A DNA stretch of 39,069 nucleotides from a virus (Duplodnaviria; Caudoviricetes): positions 1-39,069 of the IMG/VR virus record IMGVR_UViG_3300017766_002297; one strand, 5' to 3'. Every line of letters starts with the position of its first letter. Within the stretch, counting starts at the first letter, position 1. Under the pieces are notes generated by a model. That model saw nothing but the letters and a program-made list of their open reading frames with translations. It had not been told where the DNA came from and did no database searches. The position numbers and the translations under genes were made by a program. Below, piece after piece: positions 7,625-37,542 of this stretch.

Positions 7625-7873
7625 GGTATAAAAATACAATATGTTAAAATCATACCGATAAATGTAAGAAAAGTTCTTCGGTTTTATCGGTATAAAAATT
7701 AAATTTACAATTTCATACCGACTTTTAATAAATATAATTCAATAAAAATGTTAAAAATATTATCATTTAATAACAGAAATAATTTTTATACCGATAAATT
7801 CGTAATTATGTATCGGTATAATAACCCCCTATAAGGGGGGTTATACCTATACTTATAAATTTATACCGATAAA
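7615..7873. other. Putative replication origin with ATACCGA(TA) iterons
   Basis: Seven copies of ATACCGA/TCGGTAT in both orientations, an 18-bp inverted pair (7683-7700 / 7781-7798), an AT-rich core and a GC hairpin at 7821-7844. Confidence 0.75.
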
Positions 7874-8185: not shown

Positions 8186-8356
8186 ATGACAACTCAAGAC
8201 TACACAAACAAAGTAAACGAATTAAATTCAAAATATCCAAACTTAAAAGCTGAATTAGTAAGTGGTTGGAATAATAGATTAGAAATAAAAGTTATAAATT
8301 CAGATAAAGCAAAAACATTAACAGAAATGTTTAGAAGTTTTAATTTTACTTTCTAA
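8186..8356 (+). CDS. Small hypothetical protein (56 aa, not in ORF track)
   Basis: MTTQDYTNKVNELNSKYPNLK...; consensus leader AACTAAAAAAATAGAAATTATG; TAATG coupling to the next gene. Confidence 0.8.
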   Translation: MTTQDYTNKVNELNSKYPNLKAELVSGWNNRLEIKVINSDKAKTLTEMFRSFNFTF

Positions 8357-10063: not shown

Positions 10064-11459
10064 TGAAATTAATTTCTTAGCTACTAAAGTTTTTGAAGAT
10101 ACGTGGGAAGCTACTCAAAGTGGAACGTATAAACTTATTGAGCAAAAAGGAAGTTCAAGGAGTTCAAAAACGTGGTCAGATTTTCAAGTTATATTTTTAG
10201 ACCTTTACGAAAACCCAATGACAACGTGTACTATTTTACGAGATACTCAAAAGAGTTGCCGTGAGATTATAGAAGTTGATTGGGTTAAATGGTTAAGTGA
10301 CCCAATGGGGCGCAAAAAACAACTTGAAAAAAAAGAAATATCAGTACAAGAGTTTGACCAATTCATTAAAAAAGAATCACTAATAAAATATTTTATAAGG
10401 AACAAAACTAACCATACGTGGACTTTCTTACATAATAACTCTTTTATTCGATTTACGGGATTGGATGATGAAGATGATGCAATGGGTATGACCCAAGATA
10501 TTTGTTGGATAAACGAGCCTTATAATTTCAGTCACGAGGTTTATAAACAATTATCCCAAAGAACATCTAAATATATTATTTTCGATTGGAATCCAAAACA
10601 AAACCATTGGATTGATATTGAGCGTAAAAAAGATAATACAATCACACTTCATTCAACTTACAAAGACAATCCGTTTTGTCCTATTGAAAGTAAAATCCAA
10701 ATTGAAAGCTATCAACCATTAGAACAATGCGAAGTAGTTTTGAATGGTCAAATATTACTATCGGAACTTTATAACTACAATTTAGAAACTAATAATTTAG
10801 AATTCACTAATAGACAAATAAAAGAAATTAAGCGATGTTTGTATAATGAACAAACAGAAAGCGCAAGTTTGTACCATTATTTAGTTTATGGCAAAGGGGA
10901 GAAGTCAGAAAAGCCAAACCGAATATTTAAAGGTTGGCGAACAATGACTGAAAGAGAATTTTTTGATTTACCGTATCAAAGTTATTACGCAACCGATTTT
11001 GGACTTTCAGCACCGACTGCTAATATTGAATTTAAATTCGACGGAGATAAAACATTTTTCTTTCATCAAAGATTATATAAACCAATGAATTTAATGCAAG
11101 GTAGTTTGTCTACTGAATTTGATAATTTAGGAACTATTAAATCTAAGGAAAATATTTGTGATAGTGGTAACGAATTGAATAAAGCAGAGGGCACAAAACT
11201 ACGAAACAACGGTTATAATGTTATTTTTGCACAAAAAGGACACGGGAGTATTAATGCTGGTATTGAAACACTACAAAAGTGTAATATATACTATACTGCA
11301 ACCTCAACCGATTTAGAACAAGAGTATGATAATTATAGTTGGAAGATTTATCAGGGCATTCAATTAGATGTACCCGAAGATAATTGCAACGACCACGCTT
11401 TAGATTGTTGTCGTATGGGAGTAAGTTGGTACGTTAAAACTCGTAGATTGTCGATATAA
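10056..11459 (+). CDS. terL: Terminase large subunit (PBSX/SPP1-like)
   Basis: GSSRSSKT Walker A, WINE Walker B, DWNP, STYKDNPF, DFG and NDHALD nuclease motifs. Confidence 0.93.
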   Translation: MSNEINFLATKVFEDTWEATQSGTYKLIEQKGSSRSSKTWSDFQVIFLDLYENPMTTCTILRDTQKSCREIIEVDWVKWLSDPMGRKKQLEKKEISVQEFDQFIKKESLIKYFIRNKTNHTWTFLHNNSFIRFTGLDDEDDAMGMTQDICWINEPYNFSHEVYKQLSQRTSKYIIFDWNPKQNHWIDIERKKDNTITLHSTYKDNPFCPIESKIQIESYQPLEQCEVVLNGQILLSELYNYNLETNNLEFTNRQIKEIKRCLYNEQTESASLYHYLVYGKGEKSEKPNRIFKGWRTMTEREFFDLPYQSYYATDFGLSAPTANIEFKFDGDKTFFFHQRLYKPMNLMQGSLSTEFDNLGTIKSKENICDSGNELNKAEGTKLRNNGYNVIFAQKGHGSINAGIETLQKCNIYYTATSTDLEQEYDNYSWKIYQGIQLDVPEDNCNDHALDCCRMGVSWYVKTRRLSI

Positions 11460-11493
11460 ATTGTATATTTGTTTAACTAAAAAATAATTGATT

Positions 11494-11685
11494 ATGAAAC
11501 CATTATCAAACAACCCTAAAGATTGGATAAAAGCATTTAGTTATATTTTAGTGTTTTTATTTGGTTTCTGTTCGTTCGGATATAAAGAGTCTTTTTATGG
11601 ATTATCATTAATTTTATTAATAGCTTGTGTGTTCGGTTATATGGTATTTGACGTTATTAATAAAATAATCCATTATTTTAATTAA
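11494..11685 (+). CDS. Small 2-TM membrane protein (moron-like)
   Basis: Own promoter TATATTTG at 11464-11471; two hydrophobic segments; ATG 11494 preferred. Confidence 0.7.
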   Translation: MKPLSNNPKDWIKAFSYILVFLFGFCSFGYKESFYGLSLILLIACVFGYMVFDVINKIIHYFN

Positions 11686-11702
11686 ATCTAAATAATAATT
11701 TA

Positions 11703-11815
11703 TATATTTGTTGCAATTAATCAATGTGAAGATGCATTGGACTAAGCAAATGAACGTAAACACACAATTTAAAATCAAAGTCTTAACTTATTAATTTAGG
11801 TTAGGACTTTTTTTG
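11703..11815 (+). promoter_or_regulatory. Promoter plus structured leader ending in a terminator, before the portal gene
   Basis: TATATTTG 11703-11710; hairpin CAATG-TGAAGATG-CATTG; terminator AAAGTCTTAACTTA..TAGGTTAGGACTTT followed by a T run. Confidence 0.7.
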
Positions 11816-17680: not shown

Positions 17681-17690
17681 ATTAATTCAC

Positions 17691-17746
17691 TATATTTGTC
17701 ACTAACAAGGATGTAATGCAACTCTAACACAAGGGTTGCATTTTTT
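17691..17746 (+). promoter_or_regulatory. Promoter plus short leader with terminator hairpin
   Basis: TATATTTG 17691-17698; AATGCAACTC-loop-GGGTTGCATT followed by Ts. Confidence 0.65.
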
Positions 17747-17759
17747 AATTTATAGTAGT

Positions 17760-18068
17760 ATGGAAATATTCGGACGGCACATATACGGAGCAGATGCGGA
17801 GCAATTTCGCAACCTGTCAAAAGAGGCTAAAAAAAAATGGATTTTAAAATACACGACACAACGTAACGAAGTTATTATTGAGGACTTTGTTAGCAATCCA
17901 ATAAATAAAAAAGATTGCGGATGCGGTTGTGGTGGTAATAAGCAAGTAAATGAGAGTATCAGCAAAACAATATCAAAAGAACCTACAATCAGTAATGAAA
18001 ATATCGTTTCTAAGGGAGTTAGTAAACGAAGAACTAATAAAGGACGAAGCAACCCTAAAAAATCTTAA
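17760..18068 (+). CDS. Hypothetical tail-region protein with CGCGCGG motif
   Basis: ATG 17760 after the leader; last 119 nt overlap the next gene. Confidence 0.6.
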   Translation: MEIFGRHIYGADAEQFRNLSKEAKKKWILKYTTQRNEVIIEDFVSNPINKKDCGCGCGGNKQVNESISKTISKEPTISNENIVSKGVSKRRTNKGRSNPKKS

Positions 18069-18405: not shown

Positions 18406-18988
18406 TTTAGACACAATTCCCGCCAAATTTTTCTTTCAAATACTTGAAACGAAAAACTATCAATTACTAAAACCTAAACCAAGCGAAAAGGATTTAGAAG
18501 CGGTTTTTATTGGTATTTATGATGAGTTCTTTTTAAAGTCGGATAATTTTGAGGCTAAACGATATTTAGAAGTAACAAAGGAAATAGCGTTTATTAACTA
18601 TAAAATATCATCGTTAAAGCAAAGTTTGCATTTCTACTTTTACAATCAGACCACAAAAGAAATGCGTGACGATTTTACAAAGGCGTTATTCGATGGTTAC
18701 GGGATTACAATTGATCCAAACTTACCTTTCATCGACGAAGTGCTACGAGTATTAAATATTGAAATAGGTATTTTGCAAAATGATTTATCTTTTTTGGAAT
18801 CAGAATTTAAACTAATGATTTCTAAAAGTAAAAAACAAGCGTTCGACTATGAAGAAAATGTAGTAGCTATGGAAGGTGTAATAGGTCGTTCAATTTCGGA
18901 CGGAATAATGCTAGATAAATATATTGCCTACGCTAAACAAAGCCAAAAAATAATTAGCAAACAAGAAGAAAATAAACGTAAGAAATAA
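18389..18988 (+). CDS. Tail assembly chaperone (putative)
   Basis: Helical protein upstream of the tape measure; synteny only. Confidence 0.45.
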   Translation: MPKFHSLDTIPAKFFFQILETKNYQLLKPKPSEKDLEAVFIGIYDEFFLKSDNFEAKRYLEVTKEIAFINYKISSLKQSLHFYFYNQTTKEMRDDFTKALFDGYGITIDPNLPFIDEVLRVLNIEIGILQNDLSFLESEFKLMISKSKKQAFDYEENVVAMEGVIGRSISDGIMLDKYIAYAKQSQKIISKQEENKRKK

Positions 18989-19701
18989 TGACAGGAATAT
19001 ATAAAATCACTAATCCATCGGGTAAAGTATACATAGGTCAAAGTATTAATATTGAAAAAAGATTTACTTCTTATAAAAAATTAAACTGCAAAAAACAACG
19101 TAGATTGTATAATTCTTTTTTAAAACATGGGGTTGAAAATCATTTATTTGAAGTTATCGAAATATGCGATATAAAGGACTTAAATATAAAAGAAAGAAAG
19201 TATCAGTTAATTTATGATACCATATCAAGAAGTGGTTTAAATTGTAAGCTCACAAACGAAAACGATTCAAACGGGATTTATTGCGAATCAACAAAAACAA
19301 AAATGAGTGAATCAGCTAAAGTAAAAGTATTTTCAGAAGCACATAGACAAAATATGTCTAAAAACAGAAAAGGCGACAAGAACGGAATGTTTGGTAAAAA
19401 ACAAAGTCAAGAAGCTAAAAATAAAATGTCAAAAGCCAAAGAAAATATGAGTGATGAAGTTATAAAAAAATATTCTGATTATGCTAAAAATAGAAGTCAA
19501 GAACATAGAGAAAAACTAAGTGAATCACATAAAGGTAAAGTTCCAGCAAATTCAAAAATAATTCTAAATGTAGAAACTGGCATTTATTACAATAGCATAA
19601 CAGAAGCATCAAAAACATTTCATAAGGGGCAAGGTTCAAGAACATTGTCTTGTAAGTTATTAGGAAAAAGAAAAAATAATACTAATTTTATTTATGCGTA
19701 A
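18988..19701 (+). CDS. GIY-YIG homing endonuclease with NUMOD3-type repeats
   Basis: MTGIYKITNPSGKVYIGQS; repeated S.E.K.KMS, N.MFGKK.S and HREKLSESHKGK. Confidence 0.93.
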   Translation: MTGIYKITNPSGKVYIGQSINIEKRFTSYKKLNCKKQRRLYNSFLKHGVENHLFEVIEICDIKDLNIKERKYQLIYDTISRSGLNCKLTNENDSNGIYCESTKTKMSESAKVKVFSEAHRQNMSKNRKGDKNGMFGKKQSQEAKNKMSKAKENMSDEVIKKYSDYAKNRSQEHREKLSESHKGKVPANSKIILNVETGIYYNSITEASKTFHKGQGSRTLSCKLLGKRKNNTNFIYA

Positions 19702-28737: not shown

Positions 28738-29540
28738 TGGAAATTCAACTAAACAATTTATCAGGTGCTTTTTACGGACTTGTAAACGAACCGACAACCG
28801 AAAACATAACCTTAGATTTAAGTAATTCCCAAATCGGGGGCTTGTCTTGTGTTTATCATAATCATTCAGTAGAACCAATTATAAGCGGTGCAAACGTTTT
28901 AAAAAGCGGAAAGTATAAAACTAATACTTTAAATCTTATTTGGTTAACCAAGTTAGATGGTAATAATGTTTTAGCAAGCTATCAAACTGCTACTTTATAC
29001 GTTCCACCAATTGAGCTAACTCCAATAACTTTTGTAAACGGCCCGAATAACCTTTTAACTAATCCGCAAAGCGGTCAATACTCTACTTCAACGGGTACAA
29101 CTTACAGTGCATACGGAAATTCGGATTTTAAAATACCAGCTAATCAACTATCTTATATTGAAGTTGATGTACCAAACGTAAATTTAAATAATGTAATGTT
29201 AGGTTTAGCGACTTCAAATGTGGCGGGTAATTGGACTCAAACGAAATTCAATTTTACAATATTTAGAAGTACTTCAGCTCCGAAATTTATCACTCATCAA
29301 AACGGGGTTTTAGTAAATTCAAATGCGGGGTCTTACTATTATGGTGGAAATTCAAAAGTAAGGTTTCAACGTGATGCGGATGGAACTTGTAAAATATTTA
29401 AATCCTTAAACGGGATTAATTTTGAATTAGCATATACTTATTCGGAGCAATATGCTGGCGAAATGTATTTCGTTATTTCCATCAATAACAATCAGGCTAT
29501 TTTAATCAATCCGAAAGGTTTTAATATTGTACCGAAATGA
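28737..29540 (+). CDS. Fibre-associated beta-sandwich protein
   Basis: Asn-rich beta protein coupled to the fibre gene. Confidence 0.5.
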   Translation: MEIQLNNLSGAFYGLVNEPTTENITLDLSNSQIGGLSCVYHNHSVEPIISGANVLKSGKYKTNTLNLIWLTKLDGNNVLASYQTATLYVPPIELTPITFVNGPNNLLTNPQSGQYSTSTGTTYSAYGNSDFKIPANQLSYIEVDVPNVNLNNVMLGLATSNVAGNWTQTKFNFTIFRSTSAPKFITHQNGVLVNSNAGSYYYGGNSKVRFQRDADGTCKIFKSLNGINFELAYTYSEQYAGEMYFVISINNNQAILINPKGFNIVPK

Positions 29541-30175
29541 AGTTAAACATTCAAATACCTAATACAAATATGTTAAATGTGGTTTTCGATGGAAACTCTT
29601 TAACGTGGTATCATAATCAAATATTAAGTATTAAATTACGAGATTATTTGACTATGCAAGGGTACGATGTTTTGGTTTCTTCTTTTGGTGTTAGTGGTCA
29701 ACGTTTACTTCAAATGCTAAACAATGCACCAAGTAAGATTTTACCGTTAGTAAAAACCGAAAGAATTAATATTTTGGTGTTGAATGAGGATGCAAACGGA
29801 ATACTTCAAGATGGGTACACCGCACAATATAATTTGGATTTAATGAATCAATACGTTAATTTAGCTAAAAATAACGGGTATGATTACGTAATTAGTTGGA
29901 ACGGATGGAATTTAAGAACGCCTTATGATATATTTATCCCAACACAAACGGCAGTTAATCATCAAATATCATATTTTGATTTAGCAAATACAACCGCTTT
30001 AACATCGGATTTAAATATTGATATGCGTAATGCTTTATATGTAGGTGGTGGCGTTGGATTACCTAAAAACCCTACTTATGATATTGATTACATTCATAGA
30101 ACATTATTAGCTTATGAATTAGGAATAGCACCTTATTTTATAGAACAATTTAATCAAACATTCACTTTTAATTAA
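29537..30175 (+). CDS. SGNH/GDSL hydrolase (putative esterase)
   Basis: Blocks FDGNSLT, GVSG, EDAN and DYIH. Confidence 0.8.
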   Translation: MKLNIQIPNTNMLNVVFDGNSLTWYHNQILSIKLRDYLTMQGYDVLVSSFGVSGQRLLQMLNNAPSKILPLVKTERINILVLNEDANGILQDGYTAQYNLDLMNQYVNLAKNNGYDYVISWNGWNLRTPYDIFIPTQTAVNHQISYFDLANTTALTSDLNIDMRNALYVGGGVGLPKNPTYDIDYIHRTLLAYELGIAPYFIEQFNQTFTFN

Positions 30176-30182
30176 ATAAACA

Positions 30183-30332
30183 ATGGAACCAAAAGAATAC
30201 GACATCGTAGTAACATCTACAAAGGAATTAGACCCATCAGCACTAAGAGAAATCCAAGCGTTATTAACTGCGTTAGATTTGAATTTTCAAATGAAAGGGA
30301 CGATTATTGTTCCAAGGCCACCAAGAACATAA
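30183..30332 (+). CDS. 49-aa peptide with Pro/Arg-rich C-terminus (not in ORF track)
   Basis: MEPKEYDIVVTSTKELDPSALREIQALLTALDLNFQMKGTIIVPRPPRT; A-rich leader; TAATG coupling to 30332. Confidence 0.75.
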   Translation: MEPKEYDIVVTSTKELDPSALREIQALLTALDLNFQMKGTIIVPRPPRT

Positions 30333-30691
30333 TGAGTATTAAAGATTACATAATGCAAAGTATATCGGTATTAGCAATGATATCCGCTTTACTTTGCGTT
30401 GTGTTTTTTGGTAGCGACTTTTTAATAAAACATCAAAAAGTTTTAACTTTAATAGATATCAGCTTGTTTGCTATATGTTTTATAGATTTGATATTTGTTT
30501 TACTTAGTGGGAAAAAATATTACAAGTTTTCTATAAATTGCTTTATAGGATGGTGTTTATTTATTTGGTGGGAGCGTACCGATATCGTATTTGAGTTATC
30601 AGATTTTTATTTTAAAAGCGGATATTACGCTATACTATTATTTGTTATAGTTAAATCAATCTTAGATAATAGAAATGAAAATACTTACTGA
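30332..30691 (+). CDS. 4-TM membrane protein
   Basis: Four hydrophobic segments in 119 aa. Confidence 0.75.
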   Translation: MSIKDYIMQSISVLAMISALLCVVFFGSDFLIKHQKVLTLIDISLFAICFIDLIFVLLSGKKYYKFSINCFIGWCLFIWWERTDIVFELSDFYFKSGYYAILLFVIVKSILDNRNENTY

Positions 30692-30896
30692 TACTTTAAA
30701 GGTAAACGGCAAATGGTCACAAAAACGATTAATGACATTTAGTAGTTTTTTTGTAGCTACTATTTACGCTTTTTTACCCGTACTGTACCCTAACTTTGAT
30801 GTAAAGGAATTTGTATTTTTAGGATTCTTAGGAGTAGGCGGATTTACTTTGTATCGTATCCAAAAAAAGAATGAAAATATTAACCAAGTAGAATAA
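30675..30896 (+). CDS. Holin-like 2-TM protein
   Basis: KWSQKRL followed by two TM helices and a basic C-terminus. Confidence 0.6.
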   Translation: MKILTDTLKVNGKWSQKRLMTFSSFFVATIYAFLPVLYPNFDVKEFVFLGFLGVGGFTLYRIQKKNENINQVE

Positions 30897-31207
30897 TGGC
30901 ACCAACACAAGAACAAAAAGATATAAAAGATATAAAAGAGGACATCGTTAGTATTCGCTCACATTTAAAATCGTTAAAAGAAAACCAAGAAGTTAACGCC
31001 CTTAATCGAGAAGCCGAAAGTAAAAAGTTAGATTTAATCTACAACACTTTAACCAATAACGAATTTAACGGAGGTAACGGATGGGTAACACGTTTAAACA
31101 ATATTGAAAAAACCGTGCAGTTACACGATACCTATTGGAAAGCATTTTTTACAATCTTTGGTAGTGGTGTTGTTATTGGAATAATCGTTAAATTAGTAGT
31201 GAAATAA
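30896..31207 (+). CDS. Coiled-coil protein with C-terminal TM (holin or antiholin-like)
   Basis: Soluble coiled coil then FFTIFGSGVVIGIIVKLVV. Confidence 0.55.
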   Translation: MAPTQEQKDIKDIKEDIVSIRSHLKSLKENQEVNALNREAESKKLDLIYNTLTNNEFNGGNGWVTRLNNIEKTVQLHDTYWKAFFTIFGSGVVIGIIVKLVVK

Positions 31208-31236
31208 AAAAACCACCTTAATAGATGGGTTTAATT

Positions 31237-31602
31237 TTATAATGTTATTTGTAGTTCGTGTCCGTCCATTATATTAACGAAATTTTGCCACTCGTGTAAA
31301 AATTCTATTTTAGTCATATATACATTAGTAGTAGAATCAACCACGTACCAATAATTATAAGATTTTTTCCAAAACAATCTAAAACGGCTATAAAGTAAAC
31401 TTTCTTTAACCGAATTTGATTTAGTTGCCCCACACTTCAACAAAAGTTCTTCTGTTAGTGGCATGCCAGAGAAGTCGTTAAAAGCTATATCCTCGTCTGA
31501 AAATATCCTAGCCATTAACTCTAGTGTCATTTCGCAATCAGTAAAACCTTTTCCGTGCGTTCTTCTATACCATTTTCCTATTATAATTTCCGTTGCTTCC
31601 AT
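31237..31602 (-). CDS. Hypothetical protein, the only substantial minus-strand gene
   Basis: Consensus leader AACTAAAAAATATAAAATTATG on the minus strand; PLTEELLLKCG and LHEWQN motifs; own promoter at 31625-31656. Confidence 0.85.
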   Translation of the reverse strand: MEATEIIIGKWYRRTHGKGFTDCEMTLELMARIFSDEDIAFNDFSGMPLTEELLLKCGATKSNSVKESLLYSRFRLFWKKSYNYWYVVDSTTNVYMTKIEFLHEWQNFVNIMDGHELQITL

Positions 31603-31624
31603 AATTTTATATTTTTTAGTTAGT

Positions 31625-31673
31625 GCAATATACGAATAAATATTTGTTTATTCAAATTAATTCCCTACATTTA
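31625..31673. promoter_or_regulatory. Overlapping divergent promoters
   Basis: Plus strand TTTG(31643)-N19-TACATTTA; minus strand TTTG(31656)-N20-TATATTGC; each has a mismatched -7 box. Confidence 0.55.
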
Positions 31674-31675
31674 CA

Positions 31676-31737
31676 CTTCATAATTTATCGATTTAATTTT
31701 TTAGTTTTAACCGCTTGTGCAAATGAGCGGTTTTTTT
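31676..31737 (+). ncRNA. Putative ~60-nt sRNA complementary to phage translation-start leaders
   Basis: Bounded by a promoter and the terminator AACCGCT..AGCGGTT+T; body has TTCATAATTT and TTTTTTAGTT; no plus-strand ORF. Confidence 0.5.
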
Positions 31738-31738
31738 A

Positions 31739-31840
31739 TTTGGTAGTTTGGGAATAATTACTATCTTTGTTTTTCGCTACAAGAAAAATATATAACAATC
31801 CCCTTTCATTTGTAGCGAGTGATTGGGGATTTTTAATTTA
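31739..31840 (+). promoter_or_regulatory. Promoter plus two-hairpin leader/attenuator
   Basis: TTTG-N19-TATCTTTG; TCGCTACAA (31774-31782) is complementary to TTGTAGCGA (31810-31818) in the terminator-like hairpin. Confidence 0.7.
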
Positions 31841-31847
31841 TTAGATT

Positions 31848-32273
31848 ATGAAAGTAAAAGTAAAAAAAGAAGTTGAAGTTGAAATTACAACGCTTTATGT
31901 ACGTGCTGGAGTACGTTATTGGGAAGATGGAAAAGTCAACGGAGTGGAAGACGAAAACGGAGATTTAATTCCGTGCCGTGTTGAAGATGATTGGTGTTTG
32001 ACTATTGATTTAGAAAACGGAAAAGTAATGAATTGGAAGCATGGCATAACCGCTGACGTACATTATAAAGTTTGCGATGATGGTACTTATATTTTAGCAG
32101 ACGAAAACAACGAACAAGTTTTATGTAAAGAGGGATATGTTCCGAGTTGTTTAGCTATCGATAGTCAAGGATATGGCGATTACATTATTATTAAAATCGA
32201 CGAATTAGGTTTTATTAATAATTGGGAATTCACAGAAAATGATTTAGAAGATTTTATAGAAGATGAAGATTAA
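31848..32273 (+). CDS. Acidic phage hypothetical protein
   Basis: VRYWED, HYKVCDDG, GYVP and GYGDYI motifs; stand-alone transcription unit. Confidence 0.85.
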   Translation: MKVKVKKEVEVEITTLYVRAGVRYWEDGKVNGVEDENGDLIPCRVEDDWCLTIDLENGKVMNWKHGITADVHYKVCDDGTYILADENNEQVLCKEGYVPSCLAIDSQGYGDYIIIKIDELGFINNWEFTENDLEDFIEDED

Positions 32274-32277
32274 TTTA

Positions 32278-32306
32278 TAAACCGCTATTAACGTAGCGGT
32301 TTTTTT
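32278..32306 (+). terminator. Intrinsic terminator
   Basis: AACCGCTA-TTAACG-TAGCGGTT followed by a T run. Confidence 0.88.
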
Positions 32307-32330
32307 ATTATATTTGAAATAAAAAACAAA

Positions 32331-32795
32331 ATGATAACAACACAACAAGCAATTACAAAATACGGCAAACCAAATCAAAATGGAACGTATTTAACAACTA
32401 TCAAACTACCTTACCCAATGCGTTTAGCGTGGGATAAAAACACAATCGTAAAAACTATGCGTTGTCATAAATTAGTTGCTGATAAATTCACTGCAATATT
32501 TAACGATATTTTAGCGCATTACGGACACGATAAAATAAAAGAGTTAGGAATAGACCTTTTTGGCGGTTGCTTCAATTTCAGGGCAATGCGTGGCGGTTCT
32601 GATTACTCTCGTCATAGTTGGGGAATTGCTATTGATTTAGACCCTGAAAGAAATCTATTAAAAGAAACATCTAAAACGGCAAGATTTGCACGTGCTGAAT
32701 ACAAGCCGATGATTGATATTTTCTACAAACACGGATTCGTTAGTTTAGGGCGTGAGAAAAATTATGATTGGATGCACTTTGAAATTAAAGAATAA
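32331..32795 (+). CDS. Endolysin, M15-family peptidase
   Basis: [19 protein letters not shown] and DWMHFE zinc-peptidase motifs; own -7 box at 32309-32316. Confidence 0.92.
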
Positions 32796-32815
32796 AAATA
32801 TCCTCATATAATAAC

Positions 32816-32847
32816 AAAACCCACTTCTTAGGTGGGTTTGTTTGTTT
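32816..32847. terminator. Probably bidirectional terminator
   Basis: AAACCCAC-TTCTTAG-GTGGGTTT with T-rich flanks on both strands. Confidence 0.8.
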
Positions 32848-32912
32848 AATTTTTAACCGATAATAACATTTTTCATAGGCCTTATGTTTTAATTATTTCA
32901 ATATGCAGACAC

Positions 32913-32944
32913 CAAACCTACAACCTTTTCCCCACACTACCAAA
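32913..32944 (-). promoter_or_regulatory. Consensus Bacteroidota promoter on the minus strand
   Basis: Minus strand reads TTTG-N20-TAGGTTTG. Confidence 0.65.
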
Positions 32945-33062
32945 TTATTTTCTTATTTATAATGGGTTTAAATTAGGTTATTAAAGTAAATTAAATTAAT
33001 TTAAATTAGTTTATTTAAAAAATGGTTGTATATTTGTACTAAACAATTAAATAATAGAAATT

Positions 33063-33311
33063 ATGGAAATTACAATCGAACAAAAGATTAAAGCTAAGGA
33101 AATTTTTTTAAAAATGTACGATGTAAAAGACCCGTTAAATAAATACCCTATGTGTTTTGATACGGCTAAAAGATGCGCTATTATATCGGTAAACTTATTG
33201 ATTGAAAGTTTAGGGACTAAATATTTAGGCGGCAATCAAAACGCTTTTGAGTATTGGTTTCAAATCAGAGATTATTTAGTTTATTTAACAAAGGAAAATT
33301 TAGAATCTTAA
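33063..33311 (+). CDS. Hypothetical protein, paralogous to 9033-9239
   Basis: Promoter TATATTTG 33029-33036; leader ATAGAAATTATG. Confidence 0.8.
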   Translation: MEITIEQKIKAKEIFLKMYDVKDPLNKYPMCFDTAKRCAIISVNLLIESLGTKYLGGNQNAFEYWFQIRDYLVYLTKENLES

Positions 33312-33323
33312 TTTTAAATATAA

Positions 33324-33473
33324 ATGAAAAACGAAAGAAACGCAGGCGCACCAAAAAAGTACAAAACCGATGTAAAAACTAAAACTATACATTGGTTAAT
33401 CCCTATCGAAATTGAAAACGATTTAAGGGAATTTGTAGACAAAAAAAGTAAGAAGTATAAAGCCACCTCATAG
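33324..33473 (+). CDS. Small putative DNA-binding protein (49 aa, not in ORF track)
   Basis: MKNERNAGAPKKY..TKTIHWLIP..: basic arm followed by a strand-helix pattern. Confidence 0.65.
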   Translation: MKNERNAGAPKKYKTDVKTKTIHWLIPIEIENDLREFVDKKSKKYKATS

Positions 33474-37126: not shown

Positions 37127-37360
37127 ATGAAAAACAATATTTTAAATGAAATAAAAGAGCAACTAGGTATAGAATTACAACTGTGCGATTATTTTAAAGG
37201 GTTGAAAGAATTAAACGGAAAAAAATATTTCAACGTTTTATTAAAAGATAGAATAAGCGAGTCACTAGAATATGCGAAATTAAAACAATATTCTAAAAAA
37301 CACAATACAATTAAATTAGAGGCTAACGGATTAAATAGATTAGCAATTTTTATAAACTAA
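37127..37360 (+). CDS. Hypothetical protein
   Basis: 77 aa with consensus leader. Confidence 0.75.
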   Translation: MKNNILNEIKEQLGIELQLCDYFKGLKELNGKKYFNVLLKDRISESLEYAKLKQYSKKHNTIKLEANGLNRLAIFIN

Positions 37361-37395: not shown

Positions 37396-37542
37396 ATGCA
37401 AAACCTAAAAATCAAAAAGCAAACATTATGGACGGCTGAGCAATTAGAATCAGCCGTTGAATTAGCAAACAAACATTACGAGGGTAATTTTTGTCGAATG
37501 GTAAGAGAAGCAGTAAAACATTTAAAAAATCAGAAATTATGA
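37396..37542 (+). CDS. Ribbon-helix-helix-like protein (48 aa, not in ORF track)
   Basis: MQNLKIKKQTLWTAEQLESAVELANKHYEGNFCRMVREAVKHL; strand-helix-G-helix pattern; ATGA overlap with the next gene. Confidence 0.7.
   Translation: MQNLKIKKQTLWTAEQLESAVELANKHYEGNFCRMVREAVKHLKNQKL

Follow-up and report, generated by a model that had tools for sequence, protein, structure and literature searches.

The closest described counterparts of the locus analysed here are the FopS RNAs, a paralogous small RNA (sRNA) family of Bacteroides thetaiotaomicron (Rfam RF04319), which are reported to pair at start codons and to block translation in vitro, with targets enriched in susC, and to bind RbpB (PMC11697453). 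The authors of that report had already noted a FopS sequence in one Caudovirales phage (PMC11697453). Phage-encoded sRNAs acting on host mRNAs are described elsewhere: svsR of prophage NC-SV represses host lamB, a receptor gene (PMC12803456), and PreS/LPR1 of lambda are phage sRNAs acting on host mRNAs (bioRxiv 10.1101/2024.10.31.621285). Here we analyse a candidate sRNA unit at 31643-31738 of a phage genome, the window, by which we mean the whole stretch of DNA studied (39,069 bases). An earlier note had read this unit as an anti-leader sRNA; sequence comparison supports an autonomous plus-strand unit, found as a module in relatives, with a bias towards early and accessory starts, while repression remains predicted.

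The phage genome and its presumed host

The window is a complete virus record flanked by direct terminal repeats, with a G+C content of 28-39% and matches to terminase, portal, capsid, helicase, exonuclease and endolysin families. The phage, from a lake, probably infects a Flavobacterium-like host, judging by its Bacteroidota-type promoters and its A-rich leaders devoid of a Shine-Dalgarno (SD) sequence. Integrase and repressor families matched none of the 65 window proteins (Pfam; 26 also against PHROGs) and none of the 103 proteins of two other complete carrier genomes (G007 and G009), so that a lysogenic switch is without any sign in the window phage and the proposal that the RNA stands in for a protein repressor is unsupported. 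Scans of the window returned no tRNA or tmRNA, nor did any Rfam family reach its gathering score there; BLAST of 31200-32350 against annotated phages gave no match and the 106-base unit chance matches only. The unit is present in a single copy.

Several other features of the window were recorded. A gene resembling a GIY-YIG/NUMOD3 homing endonuclease lies inside the tail region (18988-19701), and HTH matches at 785-1105 are weak (E 0.013). The AT-rich gap after an AAA/primase-like gene (~7650-7870) holds at least six direct and inverted ATACCGATAAA-like repeats, a possible replication origin. Two short proteins of 48-49 aa (encoded at 33324-33473 and 37396-37542), with no Pfam match at E 1, are ones that we take to resemble ribbon-helix-helix DNA binders. 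TATATTTG promoters in the late region (17690-17760 and 11700-11760) precede short leaders containing palindromic hairpins, possibly more small RNAs or attenuators.

Anatomy of the predicted sRNA unit

Reading of the sequence confirmed the promoter, body blocks and terminator that had been named for the candidate, as listed here together with their state in relatives (the X contigs and L164, introduced below).

31643 to 31646, plus strand: -33-like TTTG of the sRNA promoter; not kept (missing in X8 and L164, deleted in X9)
31666 to 31673, plus strand: -7 box TACATTTA (consensus TAHHTTTG, here with A at -5); same in 5/5 relative contigs, TATATTTA in L164
31677 to 31686, plus strand: 5' block TTCATAATTT, complement of AAATT-ATG-AA start regions; extreme 5' end in the window allele
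31678 to 31738, plus strand: predicted 61-base sRNA with an inferred +1; 31 unpaired bases, then the terminator
31687 to 31696, plus strand: variable middle; ATCGAT in the window, the family core (T-run and CAT) in relatives
31697 to 31706, plus strand: 3' block TTTTTTAGTT, complement of the AACTAAAAAA leader tag; kept in relatives
31709 to 31737, plus strand only: intrinsic terminator (on the minus strand an A-run trails the hairpin); identical in 5/5 relative contigs

With a 19-base spacer between TTTG and TACATTTA, the promoter (TTTG-N19-TACATTTA) agrees with the canonical sigma-ABfr -7 box at 7/8 positions, carrying A instead of the nearly invariant G-5. Promoters of F. johnsoniae are reported to have an almost invariant G at -5, and their +1 sits 4-5 bases past the -7 box (PMC6847099). 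The TA(T/C)ATTTA-CA form of the box occurs at the corresponding position in L164, L338, L442 and L468 as well, which suggests that it is a usable -7 variant; against this reading, TAYATTTAC is not clearly enriched across 824 leaders (7 sense vs 3 antisense).

The unstructured body followed by a plus-oriented terminator was borne out by the predicted fold, in which 31 unpaired bases precede a 10-bp hairpin (stem 31709-31732, T7 at 31731-31737; a matching 20-base core is found in L164) and the stability has a z of -2.8, equalled by 2/200 shuffles. The predicted RNA strand contains no ATG ORF, and the CAT of the window allele falls at +2. Mimicry of a tRNA anticodon loop (UUCAUAA) was considered and rejected, as the flanking stem is absent.

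Opposite strand and adjoining genes

31652 to 31681, minus strand: 9-codon mini-ORF (MKCKCRELI); frame differs among relatives, judged non-coding
31237 to 31602, minus strand: divergent 121-aa gene (phrog_10066, unknown function); not adjoining the unit in L164, X6 record 2 or X8
31634 to 31653, no strand assigned: inverted repeat of 8 bp, flanked by the divergent promoters; lost in X8, X9 and L164, possibly an operator

That the segment might be only the leader of this mini-ORF, or a gene remnant, had been raised as a counter-explanation, and is weakened by a comparison of six alleles (by hand from alignment tables), which place the mini-ORF in three frames (window, X6/X8 and X9; X7 and L164; X2) and thereby remove a conserved-peptide reading. 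TAHHTTTG does not occur on the minus strand across 29361-32919. The leader of gene 31602 (31603-31622) resembles a direct repeat of the sRNA body and is a predicted target (-12.6), and the 5' block of the window allele resembles the antisense of the gene 31602 start, 80 bases off; by this resemblance, copying of the adjacent start is a possible origin of the new 5' block.

Downstream of the unit, 31739-31847 comprises a full TTTG-N19-TATCTTTG promoter and, upstream of gene 31848, an attenuator-like leader for which two mutually exclusive structures are predicted, one pairing the 5' arm (z -4.0) and the other a long hairpin resembling a terminator (z -4.5). The hairpin of this leader precedes other genes in X6, and the cassette 31741-32300 is missing from X6, X7 and L164.

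The unit as a module in relatives

The search of relatives suggested by the earlier note found the unit, next to other neighbours, in five contigs (X2 record 3, X6 record 2, X7 record 6, X8 record 9 and X9 record 16) and in the stored viral contig L164. The five contigs were drawn from 8 lake or freshwater runs, with X3-X5 left out of the counts, and may lack independence, the runs spanning five studies of which four share year and habitat. Allele differences are confined to 31676-31697, except for X7 (1 base) and X9 (1 base and a 12-base deletion), and the -7 box and 31698-31740 are unaltered in 5/5 contigs. On the left, X6 aligns from 31638, just past a tRNA-like end, X8 aligns from 31647, and in X7 and X9 the similarity sets in where another divergent gene starts; on the right, similarity ends at 31740 or 31770, where other cassettes follow. 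The unit of L164 lies between a holin-like gene and an endolysin promoter, and the divergent gene is absent. Judged from these alignments, promoter box, body and terminator are a module that travels together beside varied neighbours.

A T-run+CAT block (by hand from alignment tables) and the TTTTTAGTT block are present in 6/6 relatives, and the window allele occurs in none of the five resolved relative contigs. The two-seed description applies to an atypical allele, whose relatives instead carry a single FopS-like core. Other searches gave nothing comparable: the unit does not lie alongside homologs of the two flanking genes (L001, L002 and 19 more viewed), two viral pattern scans gave zero or chance matches only, a metagenome pattern scan (117 loci) contained no homolog of the unit among the matches listed, and none of the 120 loci of a genome pattern scan had the full layout.

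Complementarity to early and accessory starts

Duplex energies were computed against positions -35 to +15 of each start. The two best predicted targets are:

33028 to 33077, plus strand: region around the start of gene 33063 (promoter-proximal), -17.3 kcal/mol
11459 to 11508, plus strand: region around the start of gene 11494 (promoter-proximal), -16.1 kcal/mol

All seven starts named previously as pairing sites rank within the top 15 of 64 (duplex energy -17.3 to -12.2), with duplexes that are all-AU, at -12 to -17 kcal/mol, and energies that ignore target structure. The exact recurrence of the two blocks in these seven leaders held in part: AAATTATGAA is exact only at 37127 and AACTAAAAAA at 8186, 11494, 33508 and 31602, while the leader of 2106 matches at 9/10 positions and that of 33063 has AAATTATG only; AACTAAAAAA additionally occurs at two intragenic places. 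No shuffled body out of 30 matched the mean pairing to 69 predicted starts, and 2/30 matched the best-five mean.

The pairing is unevenly distributed over gene classes. With early and late labels assigned in this analysis from gene order and family matches, early/accessory starts (n=35) average -10.5 kcal/mol vs -7.9 kcal/mol for late/lysis starts (n=28; p 5e-4, 0/100 shuffles), and ATT-ATG is found at 14/35 early/accessory vs 2/28 late starts. This bias is kept with +1 at 31678 or 31679 (0/40 shuffles each); with +1 at 31680 or later it is weaker (2/40 and 5/40 shuffles), which goes against our main reading. With the longer body, 300 general host starts taken from a 400-kb sample of G030 average -7.7. 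Gene 7876, whose start matches the body in register at 13/14 positions, was discarded as a special target, since 2/762 other phage starts do equally well, the post hoc shuffle p is 0.007-0.085 and the letters are part of the repeats upstream of 7876.

A wider class in Flavobacterium-type phages

Another dozen phage contigs of Flavobacterium type have the same layout, with unrelated terminators. Scanning for a -7 box, 15-65 bases and a terminator over 1.42 Mb in 124 loci, among them the window and L164, yielded 40 units, 10 of them with a CAT block, of which 8 are anti-start-like and have unrelated terminators; the same scan in phages returned ~30 more short promoter-terminator units whose bodies are not anti-start. 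Phage loci held 6 units (1.36 Mb), 5 of them anti-start-like, and host loci none (0.98 Mb). When the pattern was freed of the terminator, a terminator followed 11/17 of the viral matches lacking an opposite gene vs 0/15 of those with one (32 matches, including duplicates and three known members, with 'no opposite gene' defined as an opposite ORF <30 aa). The filter overlooked a hairpin in L442 and in L449, which have 35-aa opposite ORFs and were subsequently counted as members. Host matches of the terminator-free pattern (30/47 examined) showed a terminator in 0/30, and 27/30 were real genes with long ORFs. A looser viral pattern (112 unique matches, mostly chance) gave no enrichment (terminators at 2/72 vs 2/40); members L466, L468 and L485 were chosen from its matches, two of them by eye.

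From these we chose a set of 14 phages, excluding L426 and L468, whose contigs are too short. Opposite ORFs measure 3-35 aa in the 14, and TAHHTTTG is absent within 220 bases on the opposite strand in 13/14. The window allele fits the class layout in its -7 box, anti-start body, terminator and absent opposite gene. Bodies slightly favour starts of their own genome (-0.28 kcal/mol, permutation p 0.004, 14 phages); on a subsample the bias was -0.24 vs -0.18 to +0.40 for six shuffles, which goes against our main reading. No cognate target emerged, the best single partner lying in another phage for 14/14 bodies, and this together with the slightness of the own-genome bias indicates that targeting is generic.

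A profile of 12 other members ranked L164 top (21.9 bits, E 9e-6) and scored the window unit at 3.8 bits (E 3.8), both being missed at default filters; its top matches within the window are antisense to the early starts 38964, 6076, 37127, 38478 and 2106. Profile R1 gave weak matches only in 61 host genomes, and the full layout of promoter, core and terminator was found in 0/25 fetched profile-R1 loci and 0/20 FopS-model loci. As observations in their own right, L342 12556-12720 (G009) has tandem promoter-to-terminator micro-units, an anti-start RNA and an unrelated second one, and a unit of like layout near ~9919 of L356, with a T-rich body free of CAT, is possibly another altered allele.

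FopS likeness and SusC starts

Two traits of the FopS family are present in the window unit: a single-stranded 5' part with one terminator hairpin, as seen in the fold, and the absence of a small ORF from the locus, the frame of the opposite mini-ORF not being conserved. Compared by eye with the consensus printed in PMC11697453, the FopS R1/R1' core appears as T-run+CATAA in relatives and as TTCATA in the window. RF04319 itself gave no match to the window or L164 units at E up to 10, none to 11 member loci, and none above the cut-off of 56 bits in 61 genomes from the genus presumed to be the host; the best-scoring member, that of G009, reached 14.6 bits. By analogy, the window unit would act in a FopS-like manner; it is no formal RF04319 member.

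SusC starts (n=60) were taken as first-ATG calls in ten genomes belonging to the same genus as G001 (the presumed host); in pairing, 13/14 phage bodies favour them over 299 other host starts (p <=6e-4; L164, p 1e-5). The window allele is the exception (p 0.11, a bias reached by 1/25 shuffles), and the L164 bias was reached by 2/25 shuffles in a modest control limited to the window and L164 bodies. For the window allele, early starts average -9.9 vs -7.4 for SusC starts, yet on own early starts it is the weakest of 14 bodies (-9.9; the others -10.1 to -14.8). An ACTAA tag is found in 30/60 host SusC leaders (L616-L675) vs 25/300 general leaders (L405-L424), and in 8/35 early vs 3/28 late phage leaders. 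An RRM_1 protein is encoded once in each of 5/5 presumed-host genomes. The family form of the RNA suits host SusC starts too, and the window allele has drifted away from that form. The SusC-start preference of phage bodies is new, whereas a FopS copy in a phage was already known (PMC11697453). FopS-like RNAs acting on phage early genes were not found in the published literature as covered here, which included few of the subscription journals.

Proposed mechanism and alternatives

We postulate, with a probability of roughly 0.5, that a 61-base RNA pairs class-wide over early starts and serves as a delayed brake that acts also on related phages. A stand-alone gene would give the predicted RNA, with +1 at 31678/9, and the host housekeeping sigma factor would transcribe it right from phage entry, its -7 box being of the same kind as that of early promoters. 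In many mRNAs presumed to be early or accessory, the RNA would base-pair over the A-rich leader and the start codon and would keep ribosomes from loading on this class as a whole, with most late genes unaffected; as the RNA accumulates, it would become a delayed brake on early translation. Translation initiation in Flavobacterium is driven by A-3, A-6, A-12 and A-13, and it is from this, and by analogy with FopS and GibS, that we infer repression. Because the leader tag is shared, related co-infecting phages would be affected equally.

SusC-type outer-membrane transporters are possible phage receptors, and the RNA could instead serve chiefly to silence them, limiting superinfection or redirecting envelope synthesis, its fit to early genes being a by-product of the shared tag. 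We consider this rather unlikely, even though 13/14 bodies, L164 included, favour SusC starts, ACTAA is enriched in SusC leaders, SusC is over-represented among FopS targets (PMC11697453) and a prophage sRNA, svsR, represses lamB (PMC12803456): the window allele itself has no significant SusC bias, that of L164 is reached by 2/25 shuffles, the SusC starts are first-ATG calls from a presumed-host genus, the L164 body is unmatched at <=3 mismatches in 5 host genomes and, with no integrase found, long residence is not evident. It is also rather unlikely that the sRNA gene is real in relatives and decaying in the window, where leftover complementarity would be partly copied from the adjoining gene start. 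The replaced family core (3.8 bits vs 21.9 for L164), the lost SusC bias, pairing that is the weakest of 14 bodies, the absence of this allele from all five resolved contigs and a 5' block resembling the antisense of the 31602 start all speak for decay; however, the lost block gave way to a new TCAT-AATTT beside an intact -7 box and terminator, the early bias persists, and CAT stands at +2 or +3 in 6/13 other members and L468. Re-targeting and decay of the window allele both fit the data.

We think it decidedly unlikely that there is no sRNA at all, the body being the leader or start of a minus-strand remnant or minigene and the hairpin ending read-through from the lysis region. A perfect gene start is readable on the minus strand, the first codons of host genes can spell an antisense -7 box (27/30 host matches being long ORFs), and a same-strand gene lies upstream in 12/14 members, often within 15-50 bases, which would allow the body to be a 3' UTR. 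Such a remnant is hard to square with three reading frames in six alleles, the lack of a minus-strand TAHHTTTG over 29361-32919, modules in X6 record 2 and X8 that begin at the promoter with the minus gene missing, terminators solely where the opposite gene is absent, and a left neighbour that is divergent in the window. A U-rich single strand might also titrate a host RRM protein (RbpB-like) or bS1 as a decoy rather than pair with mRNA, in keeping with the binding of RbpB by FopS RNAs (PMC11697453) and with the RRM_1 protein of all five presumed-host genomes; a decoy would leave unexplained both CAT and TAGTT at start-region spacing in unrelated members and their regain in the window allele, and we regard it as very improbable.

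Beyond the class-wide brake, a broader scheme, rather unlikely as a whole, would have early genes of Flavobacterium-type phages share the strong leader tag of host SusC genes (ACTAA...ATT-ATG), so that one anti-tag RNA times the early phase, damps relatives and lowers receptor synthesis, with the window allele re-targeted from SusC to early starts by copying a neighbour start. If the brake is real, a non-integrating phage would control a whole temporal gene class with one 61-base RNA, which would read a Bacteroidota start-region code in place of Shine-Dalgarno and possibly regulate rival phages and host receptors too. The window and L164 alleles, alike in terminator and unlike in seed, offer a natural pair for studying host/phage target switching.

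Comparison with known systems

C4 antisense RNA of phages P1/P7 is likewise phage-encoded and trans-acting, with two blocks occluding ribosome loading; as described, it has three stem-loops, is processed by RNase P and controls one operon in lysogeny (PMC5320573). The window RNA has a single hairpin, an unstructured body and generic pairing in a genome with no integrase match; no Rfam match to C4 occurs in the window, and neither the C4 stem-loops nor a lysogeny region were found. svsR and PreS/LPR1, according to their reports, belong to enterobacterial temperate phages and have particular targets, unlike the window RNA. Rfp18 of Flavobacterium psychrophilum has, as here, a single pairing region predicted for several mRNAs; it is described as strongly structured, host-encoded and required for higher protease mRNA levels (PMC9723704). 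GibS of B. thetaiotaomicron also has a long, AT-rich seed that is single-stranded and pairs around SD-less starts through two blocks, but is reported as a 145-nt, host-encoded RNA with two metabolic targets and extra hairpins (PMC7366714), and has no Rfam match in the window.

FopS, as described, has a housekeeping-sigma promoter, of whose -7 box the window unit shows 7/8 positions; it resembles the window unit in its 5' single-stranded part and terminator hairpin, and its printed consensus has GTGTTTTTCATA in common with L426 and L430, of which the window keeps only TTCATA. It is multicopy in Bacteroidaceae chromosomes, whereas the phage units are single-copy in non-integrating Flavobacterium-type phages and differ further in their unrelated terminators and computed bias to phage early starts. 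If our main reading is correct, FopS-type control, described for metabolism in gut Bacteroides, would extend to timing and competition in phages.
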